From a virus: a stretch of DNA of 64,000 nucleotides. The position numbers and the translations under genes are program-made. The notes under the pieces are model-generated. The model was not told the DNA's origin, did no database searches, and worked only from the letters and a program-made list of their open reading frames with translations. Position 1 is the first letter of the stretch. Each line of letters begins with the position of its first letter. The stretch is taken from the IMG/VR virus record IMGVR_UViG_3300046003_007336, positions 64,001 through 128,000 of that record; one strand, given 5' to 3'. Positions 42,678 to 62,563 of this stretch are shown here, in pieces.

Positions 42678-45600
42678 TTAGACTTTCTGTTCTAGCATCC
42701 CCAGGATGCGGTCGAGTTTGCTTTCCAGGTCAGCGATTTTGGCTTCCAGAGCAGCGTTCTTGGTCGTTAGTTCTTTGATGCCCGCTACCGCGAGGGGGAC
42801 GAGACGTTCGTATTTGACCGTCAGATACTTATCGTTGAACGGCGCGGGGCGAACCGCGTCGGGCATGATTTTCTGAATTTCCTGAGCGAGGAAACCGTGT
42901 TCATCTTCGTACTGGTAGGGGGTGAACCCGAGTTCATCGACTAGCTCTTTTCTCCAATCGAACACGTAACCACCGATCTGAGAAATCTTGCCCAGCGGGT
43001 CTTCGATCTCTCGGACGTTTTCTTTCAGGCGAGCATCCGAGGAATACGCCGTGATGTCGCCAGCCGCCGCCAGCGTGCCGCCCGAGGTCATGGTCAGAAT
43101 TGAAACGTCTAGATAGTTCCGCCACGCATAGTTGTCGGGGGAAGAGAAGAACGTGGTCGAGCCGGAAGAGAAATTGAAACGGTTGTAGCCATCGGTGGAT
43201 TTTTGCCACGCGCCGACCGGAATTCCGCCATTGAACCATAGAGGTTGCTGCGTTGTTCCATCGTACCACGTGAGATTGGTCGCGTTGACGTACAGGCCGA
43301 TGTTGGACGACCCACCACCATAAATCCTGGTAGCGGAACCGGTGCCACCCGCGTTTCCGTAGCCGATATACATGCCATCAGTAACAGCACCGGACGAGTT
43401 GCGGACGACACGTTGGTTCATGAAACCACTGCCATCGCGAACCGGGACAGTGCTTGCGGTATCGCTAGTGGTGCTGGAACTGTAGCCATCCAGGAGATCG
43501 GCGTCCAGACCTGAGCCCGCGCCGTCGTTTGTTGAATTCCAGATGGTCGCAACACCCCACATAAGAACGCCAGAGGCATTCATATGCAGGCGATTTACGT
43601 CTCGGCCAGACCAGTGGAACGCAATAGACGGGTCGTATGAACCAGAAGATTGGGCCACGCCAACCAGACCGACTTCTCGGATTTGCAAGCCAAAGTTGGT
43701 CCAGTCGTTGCCCGGAACGTCACTGCTAATGATCTGTGGTTTCGTGAACGTCGAGGCGGTGCCGAGCAGAGCAAACGATGTGGCGTGGTAACCATCCAGG
43801 AGGTCAGCGTCGAGGGTTGAACCCGAGCCGTCGTTACCGGCATGCCACGCCGTGTTGGCGTTGATGCGGACGGTGCCAGTGCCAGTAGTGGTGAGGTTGA
43901 TGTTTGAGTTTGTAACTTCGTTTGCTAGCGTTATGGTGCTACCGCTGTGTTGGATATATCCATTACGGCTGCTGTTTGCAGTATTATACCAGCTATAGTA
44001 AGCTGCATCGTTTGCGATACGGACACCTTCGCCACCGCCCAGCGCAACGGTCACACGAGACGAGAACGTCTTGCCCGCCATCGTTGTCGGCAGATAAGAA
44101 TCGCTCAGCGTACCGGCGTTGATATTCGTTGCGGAACGGTAGTAGGTTCCTTCCTGACCATCCAGGAGGTCGGCATCCAAGCCCGTGCCCGTGCCGTCAT
44201 TGCTGGAGTTCCAGTGATAGGCGGCAGCCCGAGTGACGTTGACCGTATCGAACGCAGTGGCGAAGGAAATTGCCCAGCCGCCATCCCATCCGCTAGTATA
44301 CCCGCTGTACCCCATGTTGAATTCGGTGATGAAGACTTGCGGATAGGCCCAGACTTGACCAACTTCGCCAATCCAGATACAGTTCTTCGTACCGTCATTG
44401 CCGAACCGGACGCTCTTCTTGACGGTCCCAGAATCCGTATATTGCTCAGCGGAGACGTTCGCCCAGGTTGCGCTGTAGGGATAGCCGGAGATGACGAACG
44501 TCTCGGCGGTTCCGGTTGAATAGTTGTAGACTTCAACCCGCATCCGCAACATTGCGTTCGAGTGCAAGTTGGGAAGCCTGATCTTGATCGCGCCGGTGAC
44601 AGAAGAAGTACCAGTTGTATATGCACCCCCACCTGGGCTAACGTATCGGCTTGAGTAGGTCGCCCCGGCCGGAATGCCATAATCAGCCAATCCGTTTGTG
44701 GATTTGATGATGTTGCTAGCGACAATCTCCCCGTTACCACGAACGGTGAGAAGAGCCGCCGATGACGAGTTTCTCAAAAGCATCGAGTAGTCGGATGAGT
44801 TTGTTCCGGCGTCAACCAAAACACCATAGCTCTGGCTTGATGTGGTTCCGCCTTTCACTACGGCAGCCCAATCAGCCGTTCCGGCAGTCTGAACCACTGT
44901 GAGTTTTGCAGAAGTAACGCCAGCCATTTGTGAAGCCGTATTGATAAGCACGGCGCCAGCAGCATCAACTCGCATTCGTTCCGTCATCGTAATGGCGGTG
45001 TCAACCGTCACTGCTTGAGCACTAGCGGTGAAGAAACGAATATCCCCAGCGACGTCGATGATCGACCTACCAAGCGTTCCGCTATACGAGGATACAAATC
45101 CTGTGGATGATGTAGATGTCTTAACGCCATATCCTAGTTGCAGACCGATGGACGAATACCCGACACCAACCAGAGCAACGCTTTCTGTGGCAGACTGCCT
45201 CTGCCCCATCATTACATAGCCGTTGCCACTACCCGCCAGGATTTGGGTGCCCGAAGTATTGACATACTGTTGGCCGGTGAACGTGTTGCCCCCCGTGGTG
45301 GCGTAGTAGGAACCCTGCTGACCGTCCAGGAGATCGGCGTCGAGCCCGGAGCCCGAACCATCGTTACCGGCATGCCAGATCGTGGACGAGTTGATGCGCA
45401 ATGCCCCACCGCCAGTCGTGTATAGCTCGATGTTTCCGGCCGACCGCTCATTGTAGATGTGGAAATGCGGAGAAGACGAGCCGCCATATCCGACGTATCC
45501 GCTTCTCGTAGATTGAGCGGCAGCATCGGAATAGTATGCCAGCCACGTCCCCGTAGCTGACCCGCTCTTCAACAACAAACCTTGAGCGGAGTTGGCCGCC

Positions 45601-48600
45601 GCCATGGTGGTGGTGCCGATGGTATCGCCGGATTTCAGAGCGAACGCCGACGCGTGGTTACCGTCCAGGAGATCGGCGTCGAGGCCGGAGCCCGAGCCAT
45701 CGTTGCCATTGTCCCATACAATTCTCCACGCCTGCCAAGAGTTCGAGTTTTTTCCTCGAAGGGCGATTTGACCAGTGCGGTAGTCGCCGAATATTTGGTG
45801 CTGCCATGTGCTGTCGTAAACCTGACTGTAGAGCGCACCATCGGTTTGGCCGAGAAGCGACATGCTACCGACATAGCTGATACCGTTCTTTGCCAGAGTG
45901 TCGGCAGCGACGCCGCCACCGGAGTTGGTATTGGAGAAATCACCGGCATGGACGACCTTGTTACCATTGACCTGGAGGGCAGTAGAGAGGTCGAAGTTGG
46001 CCGTCGTGGCTTGAACACCCGACCGAGAAATTATCAATGCGCTCTGGGACGAAGCCCAGGCATCATTGATGAGTAGAAGATGAAGTTGATCTCCGTTTTG
46101 GGCAAGGGCGGAATATCTATTGTTGGCCGTCCCATCAGAATCATACATCGAGTAATACGGGTAGGCTGAGTTTGACGCCACTCCACCCGTAAACGTGACG
46201 TTTCCTGAAATCGTGCCGCCCGCTGTCGGAGAGAAAGCGTCCGTGATTCCGTAACCGGCCAGCGTCGTCGGGTTGGTTCCCGCAGTCACAATACCCTGTG
46301 CGTTGACGGTCACGCTCCGATAGGTCGAGGCAGTGACGCCAGACGTCGGGAGGTCACCGTTCGCAATAGCAGAAGCCGACCACGTGTCCGTGCCGGTGCG
46401 ACGGACGAAGCCGGTCGTGGCGAGACCTTCGACCGCAGCGAGATCATTCGCGAGAACGAGAGTCGGGTTGCCCGACACACCATCGCCGTTCGAGACGGTG
46501 ATGCCCGCAGCGGGCGCGGTCAGCGTCCGTGAAGCATAGGTGCTCGCACCCGTGCGATGAATGGCCCCATTGGTCGCAAGGTTGTGCAGTGCCAGAGCCT
46601 GACCGGTGAGTTGGAAATCGATTCCCGACTTCGTGATGCCGGTCGAGGCCGTGAATGTGGCCGAGCCACTGAACTGCACCCAGGTGACTGCGGTGGTTTC
46701 GAGCGTTCCTCCGGCATTGACCGTACAGGTCCAGCCCGTGTCTCCTTGGGTCGTTCCTTCTTCGACAAACACATATGCGGATACGAGTTCAGCCCAGGTG
46801 CTCGCGTCAACAGCACGAGCCCAAGCTCCAGCGGCGCAAACATAGATGCCGTTCTGAAGAGTAGATGTTTGGTTCTTGACCAGAACACGATCATTCGCGA
46901 TGACGGCGACGCCATCGATTGTTTGCGTGCCCGACAGAGTGATGTTTGCCGTCGTGGCGACGTGGACGGCGGCCTTCGCGGATAGTCCTTGAATGGAGTT
47001 ATCGACGTATTGCTTGGTCGCGGCCTGGAGGGCACTGGACGGGTCGGACGCCAGGGTGACGCTTCCAGTAAAGGTTACAGCACCAGCGGAAGAAATCGTC
47101 ATCCGACGAGTGAGATTTGTATCAAATCCCAATGCAGCGGAAACGGCGGTTCGAACGACAAATTCCGAGTTTGTGTTGTCGTAGTAAATCGTTGATCTGG
47201 ATGAGTTGTTATTGTAGAAATCAAGGGAGGTATACTGCTCACCTCCGTTATCGACACGAATCGAGTTTGCGTTGCTTCCCTTCACATGGAACTTAGCACC
47301 AGGGGTCGCAATATTAACGCCAACATCACCAGCGTAAGTGATGCTCATTCGGGCATCGGCCAGCGTCGCGGCGGTGTTGTCAGCACCACCGTTGTTGAGG
47401 ATGTGAATCGTACCACGAGCCGCACCATCGCCGATTTGAGCTTGAACGATGGCACTCTTCTGGAATGCGCGGCTGGCCTCGGTGTAGCCGAGGCCGATAC
47501 CGGCAAAGTTCCCCGCCGTGATGTTGAGACCCTGGCTGCCGAACACGGCGAATTGCCCCGTCGTCAAATGGGTGTGCAGTTTAGCCACGGGGGCCGTCGT
47601 GCCAATGCCAACGCTGCCATCGGTCTTGACCCGGACCTTTTCTGACCCGTTAGCCCACAGAGCCAGATCGCTTGATGCTTGGCCGCCAATGAGAGCTAGG
47701 TTGGTATCCCAGGATATGATGCCGTTATTCGCCGATGCACCCCAACGCTGAACGCCGTCTCCAGTGATGGTGATACGGCTGTTCAGGTTTACAGTTGTGT
47801 CACTGCCGGTGCCGCCGTCCACGATGTGGAGCTTGGCTGACGGAGAGACGCCTATGCCGACGTTACCTCCAAAGAAGTTCCTTGCCGCCGTGTCCTCTTG
47901 ATAGAGCCCATACGCTAGGTTGGTCTGCGTACCACCCGTGACATCACCGATGTAAACGCCATAGGTATTCGTGATGATACCAGAGTTGAAAAGCAGGTCT
48001 ACTTTCGCTCCGTAAGCGTTGGTTATTACGCCCGCCGCGTTCAAGTTTTGTATCTCGAACTTCCCAGCGATAGCATTTGTGTTGGTCCCAGCCGTCGTAT
48101 GATAGACAAGGAACCGACCGCCATGCATATTGCTGACCGTCTTAGTGGTCGTTGCGCCGCCCTGGGCCGCGAAATACCCTCCTGTAAAGGTTCCGGTGTA
48201 GTTGAACGCACTGCCGTTCGGGGCAGCTACGAACGAGCCGCCGATAGCTGACTGCGAATTATTTGCCGTGAGTACGACGTTTCGCTGGAAATTCCCTCCG
48301 ACTACCGTGGCGGTAGGGTCAGTAGCGTTGGCGTTTGCCGTGAGAAGAATGTTCGCGTCTACCGCTGTTCCGCCGATGGCGACGTTCCCTGCGAGTTGGG
48401 TAGTCCCGGCGTTCCAAAGCCCGTACCGGTTGGTTATGGTCGTGTTGGTTCCGGCGGTTGCGGAACCTGCGATGTAAACGGTAGCTGCGTTTGTGACCGT
48501 TATGGCGTTTGTTGACGCGAGCGTCGTAGTCCCGAAAGAGTGCCCGGCGCGAGTCGCCACCGTTCCTGCCGCCGCTGTTGTGGTGTCGGTGTAGGTGCTG

Positions 48601-49763
48601 GCGTCTACCGCGAGGCCTAGTCCGGTAGTTGTCCAAGCGGCTGCGGACCTCGCTCCCGAGATGTTGAGCAAGGCTAGAGGCGTGGCTGTACCGATGCCGA
48701 CGTTACCGGTGTCCGTGAACCTAGCGACTTCGACGTTGTTCTTGACGGAGACGATTACATCAGCAGTGCGAGAAATATCGCCATCACCGGCTCGAAGATT
48801 GAGGTCTGAGCCGCCGATTGAATTGAAGTAGATCGAATAGCCCACACTTGACGAGTCGCCGATCTGAAGGGCAGCATACGGGAGGTTGACCGTTGACGCC
48901 GTGCTGGTCGGCAAGCTAAAGAGCGTGGTGGTATTGCTCATGAAGCGGAGACCACGGCCAGATGCAGCTTTCAGGACGCTAAAGCCCGAGCCGTCCGCGT
49001 GGGGCATTGTCACATAACCAAGCGTGTCAACGCCGAAGACTTGTTCTCGACCTACGTTTACCGCAAATTTCTGAGCGGGAGTTCCCCCGATACCGACGTC
49101 TCCGGTTGCGGTGATGCGCATGCGCTCCGCGCCGGTTCCGCTCGAAGAGGTTCGGAACGACAGCGCAGTGGAGCCACCGTTGGACCGCGCCGACATCGTG
49201 AAATCGCCACCAGAGGAGTCCATGGACAGAACGCCAGCGATGGTGGCTGGCTCGGCATAGGTTCCGCCAGTCGTGAATAGCACGTTGCCAGTGAAGGTCG
49301 GCGCCGCAGATGCTGATTTTGCGTCCAGTGCAGTCTGAAGTCCGGTAACGGTAGAGATGGCCTGAACGCCAGTGTGGTTGACCCGAGCCAGCAGAGTGGC
49401 GTCGGAGGAGTTGGCGGTCGCGCCGGTTGCGATGCCATTGAGCTTGGTCTTGTCAGCAGCCGAGAGGAAACCATCAACCGACGTGGTTGCCGCAGCGTGG
49501 ACGTGTGACGAGACCGAATACGACCCCGCCGCCTGTTTGCCGTCCAGCGCGGCCTGAAGACCAGTGACCGTTGATATCGCTTGCTCGCCAGTGTGGTTGG
49601 CGCGAGCCAGAAGAGTGGCGTTAGACGAGTTGGCGGTCGCGCCAGCCGCAATACCGTCGAGCTTCGTTTTGTCGGCCGCCGAAAGGAAACCGTCAGTCGA
49701 AGTGGTGGCGACGACCAGGGTGCTGGTTAGGCCAGTGACGTCGGTAATATTGATCTTCTGCAT
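42678..49763 (-). CDS. long tail fibre (2361 aa) with C-terminal S74 intramolecular chaperone
   Basis: GNVGIGT repeats, repeated DG.GSGLDADLLDG, SDARLKEN...YERLVP..V.GIKEL; TAAATA at 49769-49774. Confidence 0.9.
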   Translation of the reverse strand: MQKINITDVTGLTSTLVVATTSTDGFLSAADKTKLDGIAAGATANSSNATLLARANHTGEQAISTVTGLQAALDGKQAAGSYSVSSHVHAAATTSVDGFLSAADKTKLNGIATGATANSSDATLLARVNHTGVQAISTVTGLQTALDAKSASAAPTFTGNVLFTTGGTYAEPATIAGVLSMDSSGGDFTMSARSNGGSTALSFRTSSSGTGAERMRITATGDVGIGGTPAQKFAVNVGREQVFGVDTLGYVTMPHADGSGFSVLKAASGRGLRFMSNTTTLFSLPTSTASTVNLPYAALQIGDSSSVGYSIYFNSIGGSDLNLRAGDGDISRTADVIVSVKNNVEVARFTDTGNVGIGTATPLALLNISGARSAAAWTTTGLGLAVDASTYTDTTTAAAGTVATRAGHSFGTTTLASTNAITVTNAATVYIAGSATAGTNTTITNRYGLWNAGTTQLAGNVAIGGTAVDANILLTANANATDPTATVVGGNFQRNVVLTANNSQSAIGGSFVAAPNGSAFNYTGTFTGGYFAAQGGATTTKTVSNMHGGRFLVYHTTAGTNTNAIAGKFEIQNLNAAGVITNAYGAKVDLLFNSGIITNTYGVYIGDVTGGTQTNLAYGLYQEDTAARNFFGGNVGIGVSPSAKLHIVDGGTGSDTTVNLNSRITITGDGVQRWGASANNGIISWDTNLALIGGQASSDLALWANGSEKVRVKTDGSVGIGTTAPVAKLHTHLTTGQFAVFGSQGLNITAGNFAGIGLGYTEASRAFQKSAIVQAQIGDGAARGTIHILNNGGADNTAATLADARMSITYAGDVGVNIATPGAKFHVKGSNANSIRVDNGGEQYTSLDFYNNNSSRSTIYYDNTNSEFVVRTAVSAALGFDTNLTRRMTISSAGAVTFTGSVTLASDPSSALQAATKQYVDNSIQGLSAKAAVHVATTANITLSGTQTIDGVAVIANDRVLVKNQTSTLQNGIYVCAAGAWARAVDASTWAELVSAYVFVEEGTTQGDTGWTCTVNAGGTLETTAVTWVQFSGSATFTASTGITKSGIDFQLTGQALALHNLATNGAIHRTGASTYASRTLTAPAAGITVSNGDGVSGNPTLVLANDLAAVEGLATTGFVRRTGTDTWSASAIANGDLPTSGVTASTYRSVTVNAQGIVTAGTNPTTLAGYGITDAFSPTAGGTISGNVTFTGGVASNSAYPYYSMYDSDGTANNRYSALAQNGDQLHLLLINDAWASSQSALIISRSGVQATTANFDLSTALQVNGNKVVHAGDFSNTNSGGGVAADTLAKNGISYVGSMSLLGQTDGALYSQVYDSTWQHQIFGDYRTGQIALRGKNSNSWQAWRIVWDNGNDGSGSGLDADLLDGNHASAFALKSGDTIGTTTMAAANSAQGLLLKSGSATGTWLAYYSDAAAQSTRSGYVGYGGSSSPHFHIYNERSAGNIELYTTGGGALRINSSTIWHAGNDGSGSGLDADLLDGQQGSYYATTGGNTFTGQQYVNTSGTQILAGSGNGYVMMGQRQSATESVALVGVGYSSIGLQLGYGVKTSTSSTGFVSSYSGTLGRSIIDVAGDIRFFTASAQAVTVDTAITMTERMRVDAAGAVLINTASQMAGVTSAKLTVVQTAGTADWAAVVKGGTTSSQSYGVLVDAGTNSSDYSMLLRNSSSAALLTVRGNGEIVASNIIKSTNGLADYGIPAGATYSSRYVSPGGGAYTTGTSSVTGAIKIRLPNLHSNAMLRMRVEVYNYSTGTAETFVISGYPYSATWANVSAEQYTDSGTVKKSVRFGNDGTKNCIWIGEVGQVWAYPQVFITEFNMGYSGYTSGWDGGWAISFATAFDTVNVTRAAAYHWNSSNDGTGTGLDADLLDGQEGTYYRSATNINAGTLSDSYLPTTMAGKTFSSRVTVALGGGEGVRIANDAAYYSWYNTANSSRNGYIQHSGSTITLANEVTNSNINLTTTGTGTVRINANTAWHAGNDGSGSTLDADLLDGYHATSFALLGTASTFTKPQIISSDVPGNDWTNFGLQIREVGLVGVAQSSGSYDPSIAFHWSGRDVNRLHMNASGVLMWGVATIWNSTNDGAGSGLDADLLDGYSSSTTSDTASTVPVRDGSGFMNQRVVRNSSGAVTDGMYIGYGNAGGTGSATRIYGGGSSNIGLYVNATNLTWYDGTTQQPLWFNGGIPVGAWQKSTDGYNRFNFSSGSTTFFSSPDNYAWRNYLDVSILTMTSGGTLAAAGDITAYSSDARLKENVREIEDPLGKISQIGGYVFDWRKELVDELGFTPYQYEDEHGFLAQEIQKIMPDAVRPAPFNDKYLTVKYERLVPLAVAGIKELTTKNAALEAKIADLESKLDRILGMLEQKV

Positions 49764-49792: not shown

Positions 49793-52700
49793 TTAGTCGC
49801 GGAGCAAGAAGGCAATATCAGCGAGCGTCGAATCTACGCTGACTGGTGCATGGATGGTGATTAGGTCACCGGCAGCAACGCTCGTGCTGGAATACGCCAC
49901 GGTCCCCGTCGTTCCTGCTGCTGAGAACGTGATAGTTCCGACCTGTGAATTGTTTTTCTTGATCACAAACACGGTAGAGGCAGTTGCCGCAACCAGAGAG
50001 CGGGCCGACGAGTTGGCCGCCGAGAACGTGAACGTGTAGGGGGCGATTTGACCATCCACGACCTGGGACGTGGTCGGCTTGCCGGAATGGAACGACGACA
50101 GCAGGACGTCTTCGATCAAGGCGTAGTTGCCCAGAAGACGAGCCGAGACGACGTCTCCGTTGAGCGGCGTGGTCACCATGGTGAGGTTTTCGCCCGACAC
50201 CGTGTAGTCAGTCGTGGGTCGCTGAACGATGCCGTTCACGGTTACGATGATGAGGTCGGCTGTGGTTCCGGTGGCATCGAGATCGAAGACGCTTACGATG
50301 CCATCTGCGGTGAATGTTTTGGTGAATGGGGTCCCGAGACCAACATCGACGTTACCAGCACCATCGGGTGCCAGCCCGTTGATGGTCTGGATACGGAGAC
50401 CGAGTTCGGTCGTGAGGCTTGAGACATCCGAGATGCCAATCGATAGAGCGGTCTTGAGCGAACCAGCCGAGATGGCGCCCTGGAGACCAGCGACGCTAAC
50501 GACCTGATCGGTGTTGTCGATTTTTTCCCAGACCGTGCCATTGCTGACAATCCAGTCGCCGATCTTCCAATCCGTGATGCCATCCTTGGCAGTCGAACCA
50601 GCGGTACTGACGACGTAATAGTTGCCTTTGTTTCCTGTCGCCGCTGCGGGGATTGTCGGAGAATCGGTGGTGGCATTCCACGTGCCCTGATAGCGCATTG
50701 CACCCAGAACCGTATCGGGCAGATAGGCGGTCGAAATTTTTGCATCGCCACCGAGCGGCGCGTAGCCGTTGGCCTGACCTTTTTCTGACGAAAGCTGTGC
50801 ATCCGAGATGTTGTATCCGGCCAGCGTTGTGGGCTTGCCGGTGATGGAAGCGAAGGACGGCGTGATCGTGACTGTACCAGCGGCGGTAATCTGCCCCTTG
50901 GCGTTGACGGTGAAGGTCGGAGCAGCGGTAGCGGACCCGAAAGAACCCACGTTCGAGTTGACAGTGGCCAGGGTCGTGGCGCCGCTGCCAGCAGACGTCG
51001 TGATGTCACCAGACAGCGCGGGCAGTCGAGCGGTCGAAAGCGTTCCGGTGGCGTTGGTGAGATCGAGGTAGTAGGCACCATGCTGGCCATCCAGGAGATC
51101 GGCATCGAGCGTTGAGCCCGTTCCGTCGTTGCCTGCGTGCCACATCGTGTTCACGCCTACGAACGGAACTACCGCAAACGTGACCTGTCCGGTCGCCCGC
51201 GAAATCGACATCGTGTTGAATGTTTGAGTCCCGGCGTCATTGTAGGCGAGTAGGTTGAAGGTGGAACCGGCCGACGAGCCACTTTCTGCTCCGGCATCAA
51301 CTGTCATGTTCCATCGGCGAGTTCCGCTGGTCTGCCATTCGATGGCGCGATGCTGACCAGCAGGCGCGGTCAGATTGAGGACGGCTCGACCCGAGGTAGA
51401 GATCGTCAGCGCATCCGTGAGGGTGCCGCCAGACAGCGGAAGGGCATCAGTGATGCCGTATCCCGTCAGCGTGGTGGGCTTGCTCGTGATCGAAGACCAC
51501 GCAGGCGTGATGGTCGTCGCCGAGGCAGCAGTGATGAGACCCTTGGCGTTGACGGTGAAGGTGGCGGTCTGAGTGGCAGAGCCAAACGAGCCCACATTGG
51601 AGTTCACGGTCGCGAGGGTGATGGCCGTCGCGCCAGCGACAGTAGACGCATCACCGCTGAAGGCGGGCATGCGAGCAGCCGCAACGGTGCCGGTCAGGTT
51701 TGCGGCAGCGAGATAATAGGGCCCATCCTGGCCATCTAGGAGGTCAGCATCGAGACCGGAGGTCGCGCCGTCCACGGTGATGAGTTTGGCGAGCACGTCG
51801 GCAGCCGTGTAGGTCGATACCGAGACCGCGTCTGTGATGCCGTATCCCGATAGAGTGGTGGGCTTGCTCGTGATGGAAGACCACGCCGGGGTGATCGTGA
51901 CCGAGCCCGCTGCGGTGATGAGACCCTTGGCATTGACGGTGAAGGTCGAAGCAGCGGTAGCGGAGCCGAACGAACCAGTGTTGGCGTTCACTGTCGCGAG
52001 AGTGGTTGCGACTGTTCCGACCGTAGTCGTGATGTCGCCAGTCAGGGCGGGTAGACGGGCCGCCGCCAGGGTTCCGGTGACGTTGGTTAGATCGAGATAG
52101 TAGGTCCCGTTTTGGTTATCGAGAAGATCGGCATTTAGGCCAGAGCCGGGACCATCATTATTGGCGTGCCAAAGGCCCGCACCACCCACCGTTGGCGTAT
52201 TGGCGAAGTTTACGATCTCCGCGTTGCTGATATCCATCACGATGCTCTGCGTCGCGAATGTCACCGGGTTAGCGGTGTTGTGGCGGATATAGAACGAGCC
52301 ACTGTTGAGGTTTATCGTCCAACCACCAATGGGAGCAGTTTGGTCATTCTCGATAAACTTGATTCCAGGAACCACACCAGTGATGGTCTGAATTTCAGTG
52401 AAAATGTTGGCTACGCCCAAACCCGCCGAGTCGGTTATGCCGTATCCAGACAGCGTGGTGGGTTTGCTCGTGATCGATGACCACGCCGGAGTGATCGTGA
52501 CTGTGCCAGCGGCAGTGATGAGTCCTTTGGCATTGACCGTGAAAGTAGGCGCGGCAGTAGCGGAGCCGAAGGAACCCACATTGGAGTTGACGGTCGCGAG
52601 AGTGGTGGCCGCGCTTCCTGCGGACGTCGTGATGTCGCCAGTCAGGGCAGGCAGGCGGGCAGCCGCAAGGTTCCCGGTCAAGTTCCCGGCGTCGTTGAAG

Positions 52701-54469
52701 GCCGGGTTGTCCAACTGAGTGGCCCGGATGATCGACGCAGTTTCGGCCGAGTAGAAAATCACCGTCACGGCGTTCGGTGCCGTGTTGATCACCGGGGCAA
52801 CGGTGAAGACCCAGTTGGCTCCGAAGGTCAGAGCGCGACCACCAGTGACATCCTGCTTGTAGATCACGACACCCGAACGTCCGGTGATGACGTTGGTCGG
52901 GTTGGCGAGAAGACGGGTGTTGCCGATTCCCGAGGTAGCGGTCAGAATCCAGTTGACGCCAGACTGCATGTCGATGGTGACGGTGGCGCCATCGGTGAGG
53001 GTGACTGGCTGATCTTGGGCCGCCAGACCAGAGGGCGAAACCACCGTGGTGGTGCTGGAGCCAGCGCGGACGACAGAGTTGGCAGCCACCGGGAGTTGGG
53101 CGATTGGAACGAGACCAGACGCCAGAGAGGCGTAGCCGTTGGTCGCTCCCTTGTTTGCTGCGTTCTCGGGCGTGAACCCCAGCGCGGCTGTGATATCACC
53201 GTTGACGAAGTTGAGCGCGGTCTTGAGGCCCGAATCCGTGATGACGCCGGTCAGTCCAGCGACGCTGATCACGGCGTCGGTGTTGTCAATCTTGTTCCAG
53301 GTTGTGCCGTTGCTGATCAGCCAATCACCGCTCAGCCAATCGGTGATTCCACTGATCGAGGTGGAGCCGCCCGTGGCGACGATGTAGTATTCGCCCTTGT
53401 TGGTCGAGGACGCAGCCGGAATGGTCGGAGTATTGGTATTCGCGTTCCAGGTCCCCATGTATCGCAGGGCACCGAGGACGACGTCCGGGAGATAGGTGGT
53501 GGCGATCTTGGAGTCGGCGCCGAGTGGGGCGTAGCCGTTGGCTTGACCCTTCTCGGAGATGGGTTGGGCATCGGTAATTCCGTAGCCGACCAGCGTCGTG
53601 GGCTTTGATGTAATCGAGTTCCACGCGGGGGTGATGGTTGCCGACCCAGCCGAGGTGATCAATCCCTTGGCGTTGACGGTGAAGATCGGAGCGGCAGTGG
53701 CGGAGCCAAAGGAACCCACGTTGGTGTTCACCGTCGTGAGCGTGAGAGTGGCGGAACCAGTTGAAGAAGAGATGTCGCCAGTCAGGGCAGGCAGGCGAGC
53801 AGCCGCCAGCGTTCCGGTCAGGTTTGCGGCACTGAGATAGTAGGCTGCACTCTGCCCATCCAGGAGATCAGCATCGAGACCAGAGCCCGTACCGTCTACG
53901 GTGAGGAGCTTGGACAGAACATCCGCCGCAGTATAGGACGAGGCCGTGACTGCATCCGTGATGCCATAGCCGGAAAGCGTCGTGGGCGTGCTCGTAATAG
54001 AAGACCACGCGGGGGTGATGGTTACCGAACCAGCGGCGGTGATCAACCCTTTGGCGTTAACGGTGAAGGTCGGCGCGGCAGTGGCGGAACCAAACGAACC
54101 CACATTGGAGTTCACCGTCGCGAGCGTGGTTGACGCTGAACCAACGGTAGTCGTGATGTCTCCGATCAAGGCCGGAAGACGTCCTGCCGCCAGGGTTCCG
54201 ACTAGGTTACCGGCATTGAGGAAGTAGGTGCTGTCCAGTCCATCCAAGAGTGTAGCATCAGCAGCCGTCCCCGTTTCACCGAGGCCGCCGCCGTAGGGCG
54301 CACCCCACCCGGTATCGACGTGCTTGGGTCCGTAGAACTCACCGTTAGTTTTGTTGACGTATATTTCGCCGGGGAAACCCAGGCCGGAAGAGGGCGCCCC
54401 AGTGCCGACACGTATGCCATACGACACGCCGTTCTTGGTAAGTCCTGAAAGATGTGGAATCGCGCTCAT
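49793..54469 (-). CDS. modular tail fibre protein (about 1558 aa)
   Basis: Repeated TVNAKG.IT.A...PTTL.GYGI.DA modules and two Y.GTWNA modules; TAAATA at 54489-54494 argues for start MSAIPH. Confidence 0.88.
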   Translation of the reverse strand: MSAIPHLSGLTKNGVSYGIRVGTGAPSSGLGFPGEIYVNKTNGEFYGPKHVDTGWGAPYGGGLGETGTAADATLLDGLDSTYFLNAGNLVGTLAAGRLPALIGDITTTVGSASTTLATVNSNVGSFGSATAAPTFTVNAKGLITAAGSVTITPAWSSITSTPTTLSGYGITDAVTASSYTAADVLSKLLTVDGTGSGLDADLLDGQSAAYYLSAANLTGTLAAARLPALTGDISSSTGSATLTLTTVNTNVGSFGSATAAPIFTVNAKGLITSAGSATITPAWNSITSKPTTLVGYGITDAQPISEKGQANGYAPLGADSKIATTYLPDVVLGALRYMGTWNANTNTPTIPAASSTNKGEYYIVATGGSTSISGITDWLSGDWLISNGTTWNKIDNTDAVISVAGLTGVITDSGLKTALNFVNGDITAALGFTPENAANKGATNGYASLASGLVPIAQLPVAANSVVRAGSSTTTVVSPSGLAAQDQPVTLTDGATVTIDMQSGVNWILTATSGIGNTRLLANPTNVITGRSGVVIYKQDVTGGRALTFGANWVFTVAPVINTAPNAVTVIFYSAETASIIRATQLDNPAFNDAGNLTGNLAAARLPALTGDITTSAGSAATTLATVNSNVGSFGSATAAPTFTVNAKGLITAAGTVTITPAWSSITSKPTTLSGYGITDSAGLGVANIFTEIQTITGVVPGIKFIENDQTAPIGGWTINLNSGSFYIRHNTANPVTFATQSIVMDISNAEIVNFANTPTVGGAGLWHANNDGPGSGLNADLLDNQNGTYYLDLTNVTGTLAAARLPALTGDITTTVGTVATTLATVNANTGSFGSATAASTFTVNAKGLITAAGSVTITPAWSSITSKPTTLSGYGITDAVSVSTYTAADVLAKLITVDGATSGLDADLLDGQDGPYYLAAANLTGTVAAARMPAFSGDASTVAGATAITLATVNSNVGSFGSATQTATFTVNAKGLITAASATTITPAWSSITSKPTTLTGYGITDALPLSGGTLTDALTISTSGRAVLNLTAPAGQHRAIEWQTSGTRRWNMTVDAGAESGSSAGSTFNLLAYNDAGTQTFNTMSISRATGQVTFAVVPFVGVNTMWHAGNDGTGSTLDADLLDGQHGAYYLDLTNATGTLSTARLPALSGDITTSAGSGATTLATVNSNVGSFGSATAAPTFTVNAKGQITAAGTVTITPSFASITGKPTTLAGYNISDAQLSSEKGQANGYAPLGGDAKISTAYLPDTVLGAMRYQGTWNATTDSPTIPAAATGNKGNYYVVSTAGSTAKDGITDWKIGDWIVSNGTVWEKIDNTDQVVSVAGLQGAISAGSLKTALSIGISDVSSLTTELGLRIQTINGLAPDGAGNVDVGLGTPFTKTFTADGIVSVFDLDATGTTADLIIVTVNGIVQRPTTDYTVSGENLTMVTTPLNGDVVSARLLGNYALIEDVLLSSFHSGKPTTSQVVDGQIAPYTFTFSAANSSARSLVAATASTVFVIKKNNSQVGTITFSAAGTTGTVAYSSTSVAAGDLITIHAPVSVDSTLADIAFLLRD

Positions 54470-54572
54470 GGGGCCCCTTGCTATGGGGTATTTATTCAAA
54501 GCCCGGATATGCTTTTTTACTTGACAAGATTTCCAGAAGAGCTACTTTGCAGTTCAGGAACAGGAGACGACG

Positions 54573-57655: not shown

Positions 57656-58023
57656 CCAAGCATCTCGGCGAACGGGCCTCGTTCTTCACCAACCTGGAAG
57701 GTATCGGTTTCGTTGGGTTCGAGAGAATCAGCACCGTTGAACTCATGGAAACGGACGCCGCCGACATAGAGACCATCCTGAGGGATTACGGTCTCGTCCA
57801 CATCTCGTCATGGCCTCGCGTCAATTGGGAGCAGTTCCGGGATGTCTTGGATGCCATGATCGACGAGGGCTGGCATGTCGGCAAGTTCACCTATGCGTTC
57901 GTCTGGGACACCCGCGTGGACCCCAGCCATGGCGGCGTCCCCACGACCCTATGGGCGTTCGAGAACCTATCGACTGCCACGAGAATGTCTTTGAATTTTG
58001 ACTCCAGGACGGTAGCTCAGTAG
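57652..58023 (+). CDS. hypothetical protein of dispersed motif family
   Basis: GTG coupling; ends WAFENLSTATRMSLNF. Confidence 0.65.
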   Translation: MTKHLGERASFFTNLEGIGFVGFERISTVELMETDAADIETILRDYGLVHISSWPRVNWEQFRDVLDAMIDEGWHVGKFTYAFVWDTRVDPSHGGVPTTLWAFENLSTATRMSLNFDSRTVAQ

Positions 58024-58052
58024 TATCGGGTTTCCCTTTACTCAGTGAGTTC

Positions 58053-58400
58053 ATGTCAATCAAGATCACAGAGGCCTTCGTGCCTCACCCGGACAAAGTC
58101 TTCGTCACCGATATTGAATCCGGTCCTCTGAAAACCCAGAGCGGCCTCATCATCCCCGACGACAACATGCAGAACCGTGGCATCCGCCCGCGTTGGGCCC
58201 AGGTCTACGCCATCGGCGCAAACATCACCGACGTCGCGGTCGGGGAATGGATTTTCCTCGAACACGGGCGATGGGGGTTCGGTATCGACCTCGAACTCCC
58301 GACCGGAGACGTCGTCCGCGTCTGGCACGCAGACTTCCCCAACGGTTCCATGATGGCTTCGACCGAGGACCCGCGCGCGAACCAAAAAACCGTTCTGTGA
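58053..58400 (+). CDS. GroES-like co-chaperonin
   Basis: P..DKVFV, KTQSGLII mobile loop, V.AIG....V.VGE. Confidence 0.8.
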   Translation: MSIKITEAFVPHPDKVFVTDIESGPLKTQSGLIIPDDNMQNRGIRPRWAQVYAIGANITDVAVGEWIFLEHGRWGFGIDLELPTGDVVRVWHADFPNGSMMASTEDPRANQKTVL

Positions 58401-58459: not shown

Positions 58460-59392
58460 ATGAGCTTGAAACTATGGGTGGACGAATACCGCCCACAGAC
58501 GCTGGACCAGTATGTCTGGCGCGACCCCGAGCAGCGGGCTCAGGTCGAGAAGTGGCTTTCGGATGGGGCTCTTCCCCACCTCCTCCTTTCGGGCGTGCAG
58601 GGGACAGGGAAGACCTCCCTCATCCTTCTGATGCTCCGGCTGCTCGGAATCCCAGACGCCGATATTCTGATGATCAACGCCAGCCGTGACCGGCTCGTGG
58701 ACGACATTCAGGAGAAGATCGTCAATTTCGTCTCGACGTGGGCCTTCAACGACAGCGGCATCAAGTACGTCATCCTCGACGAGGCCGACAAGCTCTCGCC
58801 GATGGCGCAGGGCCTGCTCCGGGGTGAGATCGAACGCTTCTCGGACGTGTGTCGATTCGCCCTCACCTGCAATGCGGTCAACAAGATCACCGACCCGATC
58901 AAGTCTCGCTGCCAGGGCTTCCACTTTCTCACGCTGGACCGCGATGATTTCACGGCCCGCGCCGGAGAAATTCTCGTCAAGGAAGGCATCGAGTTTGATG
59001 TCGAGACTCTGGTCTCGCATGTCGATGCCACCTACCCGGATATGCGGAAGTGCATCGGGATGCTGCAACAGCACAGCACGACCGGCACCCTCATCGCGTT
59101 CGCGGTCGCGGACATGGAGGGGGCGCAGGATTACCTCATCGACGTCATCGCCATGATTATGGGCGGCGATCTTCTTGGCGCCCGCAAACGTCTGGTCGCG
59201 GAGGCTCCACCGGAGGACTACCCAGACATCTACCGCTATTTCTATCGCAACCTCGAAATCTGGTCCGATACTCGTCAGGGTCAGGATGAAGCCATCCTGA
59301 TCATCCGCCGCGCTCTGGTCAACCACCCGAACGTTGCCGACATCGAGATCAATCTTGCGGCCTGCATGGTCGAGCTTTCGAGGCTGCGTTGA
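58460..59392 (+). CDS. clamp loader AAA+ subunit (gp44/RFC-like)
   Basis: W..EYRPQ RFC box, G..GTGKT, INAS, ILDEAD, SRC, PDMR. Confidence 0.92.
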   Translation: MSLKLWVDEYRPQTLDQYVWRDPEQRAQVEKWLSDGALPHLLLSGVQGTGKTSLILLMLRLLGIPDADILMINASRDRLVDDIQEKIVNFVSTWAFNDSGIKYVILDEADKLSPMAQGLLRGEIERFSDVCRFALTCNAVNKITDPIKSRCQGFHFLTLDRDDFTARAGEILVKEGIEFDVETLVSHVDATYPDMRKCIGMLQQHSTTGTLIAFAVADMEGAQDYLIDVIAMIMGGDLLGARKRLVAEAPPEDYPDIYRYFYRNLEIWSDTRQGQDEAILIIRRALVNHPNVADIEINLAACMVELSRLR

Positions 59393-59604
59393 AATCAGTA
59401 GTCGAAAACACCAACCACATCACTGCCGTGCGGAAGGCCACTCGGGTGTTCTATATCAACACCGGAAACATGCCTTCGGCTAAAGCCCGCGCTCATCTTG
59501 AGCAAGTCAAACAAGACATCATGGCTACTGCTGATACTGTATTCCACGAAAACTTCTTTATAGCAACGGGCGACGAATCCAGTGTAGAAGTATTCTACCC
59601 CTGA
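59389..59604 (+). CDS. 71-aa mini-protein resembling the T4 portal (gp20) clip segment
   Basis: RVFYINTGNMPSAKARAHLEQV. Confidence 0.7.
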   Translation: MKSVVENTNHITAVRKATRVFYINTGNMPSAKARAHLEQVKQDIMATADTVFHENFFIATGDESSVEVFYP

Positions 59605-59612
59605 GGAACAAC

Positions 59613-59828
59613 ATGCTTAGCGACTACTCCCCAAATGGAATGTTCGTCCAGCCGCCGAAGAGAACTCGCATCTTCTACGTCGGCATCGGCGAAAACAACT
59701 CAACCACGTCGGCAAGAGCGAAGAAGCTCGTTGAGGAGTTCAAGCGGGAAACAAATCCCGACAGCACTCACTACGAGAACATCTTCCTCGCGTCGCCGAA
59801 CAACCACCACCACGTCCATATTTTTTAA
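59613..59828 (+). CDS. 71-aa paralogue of 59389..59604
   Basis: RIFYVGIG....A.AKK.V..F...YENIFL. Confidence 0.65.
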   Translation: MLSDYSPNGMFVQPPKRTRIFYVGIGENNSTTSARAKKLVEEFKRETNPDSTHYENIFLASPNNHHHVHIF

Positions 59829-59836
59829 GGATATTC

Positions 59837-60253
59837 ATGACTGCCGAAACGAAGAAGACTTTCGGGGACCGCTACCTGCGCAACCGTCCCTTCCTGGTCA
59901 TCTCGACCATCGCCCGCCCCGCCAAGGGCATCCGCACCTACAAGCAGGGCTGGGCTGACACCTCATCCAACTGGGCCACGTTCGAACAGCCGCAGATCGT
60001 TGATCGGGTCTCGAACAAACACCTCACCGAAGCCAGCGTCATCATCGACATCCTGAATCGCGCAGTGGTCAAGAACCGCCACAGCGACGGGAACGACGAC
60101 AAGCTGGCCGTCGAGCACTTCCTGACCAAATACACCGAACTCGTCACCGAGGGTCTGGTCCAGTTCGCGCGCAACTCCGGCCTCGTCAACGAAGCCACCG
60201 TGGCCGCCGCCGCTGCTGAAGCGGATGCGGAGGAAGCTGCGGCTGCCGAGTGA
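59837..60253 (+). CDS. hypothetical protein
   Basis: AAGGA SD, strong codon bias. Confidence 0.8.
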   Translation: MTAETKKTFGDRYLRNRPFLVISTIARPAKGIRTYKQGWADTSSNWATFEQPQIVDRVSNKHLTEASVIIDILNRAVVKNRHSDGNDDKLAVEHFLTKYTELVTEGLVQFARNSGLVNEATVAAAAAEADAEEAAAAE

Positions 60254-61489: not shown

Positions 61490-62019
61490 TAAACCTTTAT
61501 GGCCCGCCCGGCTGCGGGAAATCTACGACCAGAGCGGGGGTGTTCTATCACCTCAAGCAGGCCGGAGTGAACTGCGAAGAGGTCACTGAATTTGCCAAGA
61601 AATTAGTCTGGGAGCATCGGGGCAAGACCCTCGAATGCCAGCCGTATGTCTTCGGCAAGCAGCTTCGTGACATCGAAGTCCTGAAGGGTCAGGTCGCGGC
61701 AATCATCACGGACTCGCCATTGCTGCTCAGCAAGTTCTACGGTGAGAAATACTGCGGTGATCGCTACCCGGCGTCGTTCTACGACTACGTGGTCGATCAA
61801 GCTCGCCTTCACGGTGGGATGAACATCCTGCTCCGTCGAGTGAAGCCCTACAATCCCAAGGGCCGCAACCAGACCGCTGATGAATCCGACGCCTTTGGTG
61901 CCGATCTGAAAGCGATGCTGGATGGTCTTGGCGTCGATTACATCGAACTCGACGGCGACAAGGAAGCGGCCGAGAAAATCGCTACGATGGCCCTGGCCCA
62001 GATGTCTGAGCAACGTTGA
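61483..62019 (+). CDS. AAA_28/NadR-like P-loop nucleotide kinase
   Basis: INLYGPPGCGKST, E.AK, ITDSPLL, GRNQT; AAGGAG SD before TTG. Confidence 0.8.
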   Translation: MLINLYGPPGCGKSTTRAGVFYHLKQAGVNCEEVTEFAKKLVWEHRGKTLECQPYVFGKQLRDIEVLKGQVAAIITDSPLLLSKFYGEKYCGDRYPASFYDYVVDQARLHGGMNILLRRVKPYNPKGRNQTADESDAFGADLKAMLDGLGVDYIELDGDKEAAEKIATMALAQMSEQR

Positions 62020-62518
62020 CGCAGAGTTCGATGAACTCATCAACGCCGAGAGATTGTTTGGCGTAGTTGACGTGGTAATGGACCCACCAAACATTGTCGA
62101 TTTCGTAAGGCAAGGTTGGGTCTTTCCTATCCAACGATGCCGTCGCTCGGTTGGCACTCTGGAATGCAATCTCCACTCCACTTAGAGCGCATTTTCTCTC
62201 TTGTTTGAGGTATAGGTCCCAAAGGTCTTCGATAGTCACGTGGAAAGCAATGTTCCTGACACGAGCCCCGTTTCGAAAACCGTTGAATCGGGTCAAAGAA
62301 AGCTCGCCGCAACCACGCCAACCACAGTGTTCCGCCATCTTCCTTCCTCGGTAAGCGGGCGCGAGGCGAGGAAGTCCGTAATGATCTAGGTAGTTGCTTA
62401 CGGTCTTGTTGTTGCATCCAATCTCCTTCGAGATGTCAAGGGGAGACCTTTGCTTCTCGATGTGCTCTCTGATCAAGTATTCCTTCGTCAGTATGCTATC
62501 AAATTTTGCGATTCTCAT
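61982..62518 (-). mobile_element. free-standing HNH-type homing endonuclease gene
   Basis: N-terminal HTH; C.LSG, SLDR.D...Y..DNV.WV...VN.AK; opposite orientation to neighbours; own TAAATA at 62545-62550. Confidence 0.75.
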
Positions 62519-62563
62519 GATTCCCAAGTATATTTCGTTTGAACTATTTATCCTGGAAATAAT

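Follow-up and report, generated by a model that had tools for sequence, protein, structure and literature searches.

Free-standing homologues of the T4 portal clip domain encoded in a replication operon of an uncultured giant T4-like phage

The clip domain of the phage T4 portal protein gp20 comprises residues 279-358 (PMC4493910). Four residues of its tip (N291, M292, R295 and K296) contact the large terminase gp17, and their mutation abolishes packaging (PMC4493910). Packaging of T4 DNA in vitro is inhibited by a 24-residue gp20 peptide (288-311) that binds to gp17, according to work cited in the same paper. After packaging, two neighbouring clips receive the C-terminal arm of gp13 between their alpha-6 helices, where R295, K296 and R339 contact it (PMC12929587). 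Within the portal ring, the clip sheet is composed of a strand contributed by one subunit and two by its neighbour (PMC4493910). Portals are also recognised by host defence: Avs4 and Avs11 bind portal monomers (bioRxiv 10.64898/2026.01.04.697583; bioRxiv 10.1101/2025.11.14.688446). Avs2, in turn, is engaged and activated by T4 vs.8 and Ksap1/2, small proteins that resemble the terminase ATPase (bioRxiv 10.64898/2026.04.30.721860). Here, two small adjacent genes of an uncultured giant T4-like phage, termed mini1 and mini2, are described as free-standing derivatives of the portal clip. They are found in a stretch of 64,000 nucleotides (the window; bases 64001-128000) of the 198.5-kb IMG/VR virus record IMGVR_UViG_3300046003_007336, with 57.9% G+C and an estimated completeness of 44%.

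The products of the two genes are tandem paralogues of 71 amino acids (aa) each (32% identity; BLASTP E 2e-7). A first-pass annotation, made from the open reading frames (ORFs) of the window, had described them in this way directly after a clamp loader gene, and had likened mini1 to the portal clip on the basis of an alignment to T4 gp20. Both descriptions hold. Mini1 is matched by the Pfam family Portal_T4 (PF07230) with 28.1 bits (cut-off 22.9; E 1.1e-6) at profile positions 190-232 of 433, and by the portal family phrog_213 at E 2.7e-6. Mini1 also matches the portal of the same phage, residues 283-327 of which share 53% identity over 45 residues with residues 2-44 of mini1 (E 7e-13). When solved structures were searched by sequence, T4-type portals were the only matches, and the aligned part of T4 gp20, residues 282-306, is located within the clip. 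As gp20 279-358 constitute the clip domain (PMC4493910), "clip" is the right name for the matched region. For mini2 alone, no direct match to the phage's own portal was found; at the level of sequence comparison, its only links to the portal run through mini1 and the family profile.

The profile built from the family described below scores mini1 with 105 bits and mini2 with 83 bits. Its alignment to the phage's own portal by hhalign has a probability of 96.8% (E 2.3e-10) over 65 columns, covers portal residues 294-377 and includes the C-terminal ENFF...VEVF part. The aligned columns span the entire clip, and two gaps (12 and 5) drop 17 residues after the helix. A profile match to the portal, which the annotation had proposed as a check, is thus significant both by Pfam and by hhalign. 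The family profile also matches T4 gp20 279-310 at E 1.6e-5, and nine of eleven family members match the portal family phrog_213. The loop that connects alpha-6 to the second strand (T4 about 309-330) is deleted in all 25 minis of the family alignment (A4, which was also used for the residue counts below) and kept in both aligned portals. A deletion common to all members points, on sequence grounds, to a single old origin of the family. The full portal architecture of wing, stem, clip and crown (about 500-600 aa) is absent from the 71-aa proteins. The minis are a clip-derived offshoot and not portals, and they very probably represent a gene family that is both clip-derived and under selection.

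To delimit this family, an exhaustive HMMER search with mini1 against 1.84 billion representative proteins (E <=1e-3) was performed. It returned 12 further matches: nine stand-alone proteins of 55-120 aa; P0014, a 193-aa protein with two clip units in tandem in one chain; P0007 (L005:301-2547:+), a 748-aa protein that ends in the clip unit, immediately preceded by an N4 gp49 / Sf6 gp66 domain (PF13876, E 3e-19); and one repetitive protein of 2033 aa. A GcrA-like gene next to that of P0007 suggests that the host may be an alphaproteobacterium. A profile search of a 5.8-billion-protein set extended the family to about 25 distinct small proteins, several of them encoded on contigs of 425-578 kb; the 2033-aa protein (P0011) and a broken true portal (P0030) were left out. 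All carriers are metagenomic T4-like or jumbo phages. The family core reads TRVFYI-x-G-x-M/L-x-x-K/R-A ... YENFF ... R/K-V/I-E-V-F, with the loop deleted, and both mini1 and mini2 are members. R19, Y22, E54 and N55 are invariant among the 25 minis, and F21, F57, V66, E67 and V68 are nearly so.

The family is sparsely represented in reference collections. A tblastn search of four members against 50,697 GenBank phage records returned true portals only (one place per record) or nothing. Neither PHROGs nor Pfam holds a family for the minis themselves, and no description of free clip proteins was found in the published papers searched. Word-indexed protein searches with mini1 or mini2 alone returned only the respective query, and a search of IMG/VR for related loci with gp44 or the family alignment found none. 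A degenerate DNA pattern designed for minis and not portals yielded 88 stretches, one of which was confirmed by hmmsearch; it belongs to G001, a complete 578-kb relative.

Several members carry additional terminal segments. A subfamily of about 106-114 aa (P0012, P0017-P0020, P0022-P0024) has a conserved N-terminal lead, MIE-x-REPI-x-EK-x-LRDAKTGA, and a proline-rich linker followed by a basic and aromatic C-terminal tail (…RRWWKLRWPRAR). In a second subfamily (P0009 and P0016, 120 aa), the proteins end in …ILRILRRMMFKPKKRP. These tails could bind membranes or nucleic acids, or could be address tags. A third portal-like piece is present in G001, in addition to its portal and its mini: a 192-aa acidic protein (L111:1279-1857:+; about 532.4-533.0 kb of G001:C1) that contains only the stem end, the first strand, the tip and the helix (…IIERIQDSPERKVFSVDVGSLAPEE…; PF07230 E 2e-9) and has a low-complexity acidic tail. 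It is a portal fragment of another kind than the minis.

The fold of mini1 was modelled with AlphaFold2 from a minis-only alignment without portal sequences, which gave a predicted local distance difference test score (pLDDT) of 82.5. The model has a strand at 17-24, a helix at 30-45 and strands at 53-60 and 65-69, and this predicted strand-helix-strand-strand order is that of the elements in the clip. Along the mini1 sequence, a variable N-terminal lead (1-16) is followed by the TRVFYI strand, the tip GNMP, the helix, and the ENFFIA and VEVF strands. A single-sequence AlphaFold2 model of mini1 (pLDDT 56, all helix) was discarded as poor, and the ESM Atlas look-up of the homologue P0015 gave scores of <=0.80 from a poor stored model. 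The structural comparison suggested by the annotation gave a divided result. In a Foldseek search against BFVD, a set of predicted viral structures, T4-type portals are on top (Bp7 portal: E 2e-3, probability 1.00, TMq 0.64), and 8 of the top 13 are named portal, portal vertex or capsid assembly protein. Against the PDB, neither Foldseek nor the wide VIA-align search returned gp20; only generic small alpha/beta folds of the thioredoxin/KaiB/DinI-like type were obtained (best E 0.12; Z <=3.7). The query was a 55-residue domain whose sheet, in the portal, spans subunits.

The tip and the helix of mini1 closely resemble those of the portal. N27, M28 and K32 of mini1 occupy T4 tip contact positions, and the phage's own portal also has N, M and K there. 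Across the family, 20/25 minis have M or L at the M292 position and 21/25 have K or R at the K296 position. Over the 21 positions of tip and helix, mini1 and its own portal are identical at 14, and the portals of the window phage and of G001 at 13; mini1 and its own portal are therefore as alike in this region as two portals are. In a 28-codon stretch, only 7 of the 19 identical residues share the same codon (nucleotide identity 54/84). This likeness is accordingly kept at the protein level, and recent gene conversion between mini1 and the portal is ruled out. In mini2, the core is kept (TRIFYV, YENIFL), GENNSTTSAR, which includes a 3-residue insertion, stands in place of the terminase-contact tip, and the His-rich end NNHHHVHIF in place of the last strand; tip and helix match its own portal at 5/19 positions.

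The genomic neighbourhood of the pair is summarised in Table 1. The gene order is gp31-like, gp44, mini1, mini2, 138-aa ORF and HAD-like, followed by a thymidylate-kinase-like gene, an HNH endonuclease gene on the opposite strand and a thymidine kinase gene. Mini1 has a TTG start that overlaps the TGA stop of gp44 as TTGA, with GAGG 5 nt upstream; mini2 starts with ATG and is preceded by GAGGAA. No terminator-like site was found on the + strand between 57.6 and 61.1 kb. The setting of the minis is a replication and nucleotide-metabolism operon apart from the head genes, in agreement with the initial description of the locus.

Table 1 Features of the mini locus (window coordinates) and the portal gene of the same record
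Feature	Position	Strand	Evidence
Sigma-70-like promoter match, TTGACT-17-TAGTAT	57998..58026	+	consensus match only; ahead of the gp31-like gene string
gp31/GroES-like co-chaperonin, first gene of the string	58053..58400	+	phrog_931 E 7e-12; Cpn10 E 4e-4
gp44-type clamp loader large subunit, 310 aa	58460..59392	+	phrog_168 E 4e-68; Pfam AAA and Gp44_lid
mini1, 71-aa free-standing portal clip domain	59389..59604	+	ORF, Portal_T4, own-portal match
mini2, 71-aa diverged paralogue of mini1	59613..59828	+	BLASTP to mini1, family profile
138-aa ORF, without Pfam or PHROG family	59837..60253	+	homologue directly after AAA-ATPase in Phosso
Portal of the same phage, 602 aa	G000:C1:142393-144201 (142.4-144.2 kb of the record; 19 kb beyond the window)		

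A diverged relative, represented by a short Logan contig (L003), has retained the pair in the same order; the contig encodes gp44, a mini1 orthologue (P0004), a mini2 orthologue and a 125-aa orthologue of the 138-aa ORF. The start of the mini1 orthologue again overlaps the gp44 stop, here as ATGA. The mini2 orthologue (L003:815-1039) has 62% identity and keeps both the GE(N/D)N... tip with its insertion and the H-x-H-V-H-I-F end. Between the window and this contig, synonymous sites are saturated. The ratio of nonsynonymous to synonymous substitution rates (dN/dS) is 0.15 for mini2 and 0.145 for gp44, and for mini1 the proportions of nonsynonymous and synonymous differences are 0.36 (pN) and 0.81 (pS). 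By these sequence measures, the minis are intact genes under purifying selection.

In other relatives, the genomic context of the minis varies. A single mini is located between gp44 and a 142-aa ORF, an orthologue of the 138-aa ORF, in L013-15, with Cpn10 ahead and thymidine kinase further on. Elsewhere, minis are found after UvsX and before the gp41 helicase (L012), after dNMP kinase (L004), after dCMP deaminase and one small ORF (L019-21, two jumbo contigs), among NUDIX/NADAR genes (L011) and beside the sheath and prohead-protease genes (L006). Several mini starts overlap the stop of the upstream gene, which is gp44 (window, L003, L013-15), UvsX (L012) or dNMP kinase (L004). The cultured Sinorhizobium jumbo phage Phosso has no mini; there, gp44 is directly followed by a 127-aa homologue of the 138-aa ORF. 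Since contexts vary among relatives and Phosso has none, the comparison marks the minis as a mobile accessory insertion, duplicated in the lineage of the window. At this particular locus, the insertion separates two conserved neighbours, as the 138-aa ORF adjoins gp44 in relatives without minis.

The 138-aa ORF itself is a candidate small clamp-loader subunit (gp62 analogue), because in relatives without minis it stands directly after gp44; it always follows that gene, directly in Phosso and past the minis here. That the minis could be the missing gp62 subunit is ruled out by the same arrangement in Phosso. The HNH/endonuclease VII-like gene (61985-62545, - strand; phrog_3322 E 9e-16) has the thymidylate-kinase-like gene on one side and the thymidine kinase gene on the other, and was probably inserted there as a homing endonuclease; a TAAATA hexamer is located just upstream of it (62545-62550). 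In two unrelated contigs, small proteins whose similarity to the Pfam Gp23 major-capsid profile is confined to its first 44-61 positions are encoded a few genes from the clip minis (L004:3984-4478:+, 165 aa, E 2e-9; L006:7532-7852:-, 107 aa, E 2e-13). Free-standing fragments of other head proteins may thus be a wider habit of these phages.

The expression time of the minis was approached through the hexamer TAAATA. It occurs at 23 sites in the window (4.5 expected, about five-fold) and at 7 sites in the head region L017 (0.8 expected, about eight-fold). One copy is located about 40 nt upstream of the portal start, and another upstream of a gene pair that includes the major capsid protein; the stretches covered were the window, L017 and L016:1-60 (- strand). 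This fits a shortened T4-like late promoter core, as judged from position and frequency; the full TATAAATA was never found in the window. On the + strand, TAAATA is absent between 41.1 and 64 kb of the window. From the missing hexamer, the mini operon appears not to be late, so that the minis would be made before the portal and probably before the terminase as well. The hexamer is also found just upstream of each of two very large minus-strand ORFs arranged head to tail, at 42678-49763 (2361 aa) and 49793-54499 (1568 aa).

With a probability of roughly 0.35, the minis are predicted to be competitive mimics of the docking surface of the portal, with the large terminase or a neck adaptor as partner. 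Each mini corresponds to a whole clip (strand, exposed tip, helix alpha-6, two strands) minus the 17-residue loop. The shortened loop would probably allow the three strands to pair within one chain and thereby yield a soluble single-chain replica of the composite clip surface. Produced from an apparently non-late operon, such a replica would bind whatever docks on the portal tip, in competition with the assembled portal. The large terminase is the first choice, because the equivalent T4 segment is reported, in the work cited above, to bind gp17 and to block packaging; a gp13-type neck adaptor comes second. As an effect, terminase would be kept away from portals, be it those of the phage itself until its heads are ready or those of T4-like phages in the same cell. 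Mini2 with its altered tip may act as a partner beside mini1, like adjacent clips in the ring, or may be a copy retargeted to another ligand. The tandem fusion in P0014, together with the need of gp13 for two adjacent helices, suggests two units working side by side. The direct precedent in T4 and the conservation of the tip place the phage's own docking partners slightly ahead of a host portal sensor.

Several observations weigh against this mechanism. A large terminase was not found on the 198-kb record with PF17289, PF03237, phrog_2 and phrog_9 or in PHROG scans around the portal; in the complete G001, 105 kb separate the gene from the portal. If the phage's own tip is copied faithfully, its own packaging should be inhibited too. 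G001 has a portal, a T4-type large terminase and a mini (P0025), and the tip and helix of this mini match its own portal at only 3/21 positions. Taken as a whole, the family therefore does not follow the portal docking surface, and co-evolution of every mini with its own portal is rejected as a general rule, given 3/21 in G001 versus 14/21 in the window. Minis are far more variable than portals in the surface of the helix. The patchy distribution and the shifting genomic positions are typical of accessory arms-race genes, and production before the portal, if the promoter pattern is read correctly, would be easier to reconcile with a target in the host or a rival than with control over the motor of the phage itself.

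Part of this evidence is shared by a possible and only slightly less likely explanation, in which the minis evade immunity. As early single-chain clip replicas, they would act as decoys or antagonists that blind host receptors of portal monomers (Avs4-/Avs11-type STAND NTPases or other sensors), by occupying the portal-binding site of the sensor without oligomerisation, or they would cap the exposed clip edge of new portal monomers and so shield the surface by which portal or terminase is recognised; two tips would then mean two targets. Sensors of this kind exist, and the mini operon, unlike the portal gene, lacks a late-type hexamer, so that a mimic would be present before the portal. The absence of minis from Phosso and from the GenBank phage records searched, the variable insertion sites (after gp44, UvsX, dNMP kinase or dCMP deaminase), and the duplication with diverged tips, fast-evolving helix surfaces and variable tails are all features typically seen in counter-defence genes. 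Avs sensors are engaged by small phage proteins with a likeness to parts of hallmark proteins, as Avs2 is by T4 vs.8 and Ksap1/2, but these known look-alikes activate the sensor instead of blocking it. No evidence was found that any portal sensor reads the clip in particular, and a survey of anti-defence proteins contains no anti-Avs protein of such a kind (bioRxiv 10.1101/2025.06.06.658234). The annotation had proposed a regulator of packaging, a decoy for portal-sensing immunity or an inhibitor of packaging in competing phages. The conserved mini1 tip and the missing late hexamer fit a docking-surface mimic and do not separate these three proposed targets.

The remaining explanations are less probable. 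It is improbable that a mini completes the inter-subunit clip sheet and, by capping a protomer, delays or poisons ring assembly of its own or a rival T4-like portal. The most conserved family residues are exactly the three strands, as this would require, but they are simply the core of a small domain, and the AlphaFold2 model closes the sheet within one chain (pLDDT >90), which argues against free edges; capping the own portal would moreover be costly. A similarly low likelihood is given to an exapted fold that has lost its portal function and serves replication or nucleotide metabolism, for instance as an adaptor for the clamp loader or UvsX. Mini starts repeatedly overlap genes of these pathways, but the upstream partner differs by lineage, so that there is no single conserved neighbour, and an unrelated function would not need the portal tip and helix that mini1 keeps under selection. 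The weak and generic structural likeness to RecA-bound DinI (Z 3.6) was rejected as a lead, as this score is tied with dozens of unrelated small folds. Least credible by far are non-functional leftovers of a partial portal duplication. Although the genes are short and one starts with TTG, both ORFs are intact and have Shine-Dalgarno-like sites, the pair is conserved at a dN/dS of about 0.15 in a relative with saturated synonymous sites, and about 25 members have the same loop deletion.

The clip is a hub for the packaging motor and then for the neck, and portals are among the proteins read by bacterial pattern-recognition immunity, so that a free copy matters in either setting. If the terminase is bound, the minis would be a natural version of the inhibitory gp20 peptide and could help to study how portals are kept free of motors, or how phages compete during co-infection. 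If a host sensor is bound, they would constitute an anti-defence protein of a new type, from which the part of the portal read by sensors could be learnt; a decoy role in particular would define a new counter-defence class, in which a domain of a structural protein serves as decoy against pattern-recognition immunity. The family provides about 25 natural variants, and the pair, with one portal-like and one altered tip, has a built-in control.

Compared with the systems described so far, the minis are a known domain in a new, stand-alone accessory guise. They are homologous in sequence to the T4 gp20 clip (PF07230; PDB 3JA7, 6UZC) and agree with it in the succession of strand, tip, helix alpha-6 and two further strands; mini1 also keeps the N, M and K with which T4 gp20 contacts gp17. 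T4-type portals have 520-620 aa; the minis, with 55-120 aa, lack wing, stem and crown and hence cannot form a channel. They also lack the 17-residue loop after alpha-6, are encoded apart from the head genes in an apparently non-late operon, and carry the signatures TRVFY and YENFF in place of RRVFY and xEDFY in portals. The closest functional analogue, as far as the peptide is described in the citing paper, is gp20 288-311, the equivalent of which (tip and alpha-6) is present in every mini. That peptide is a laboratory reagent, whereas the minis are natural, selected genes whose products are modelled as folded and for which inhibition is predicted by analogy. With T4 vs.8 and Ksap1/2, they have in common that an accessory protein imitates a core packaging protein, in one piece of it or in its shape; those proteins copy the terminase ATPase and activate the sensor, whereas the minis copy the portal.

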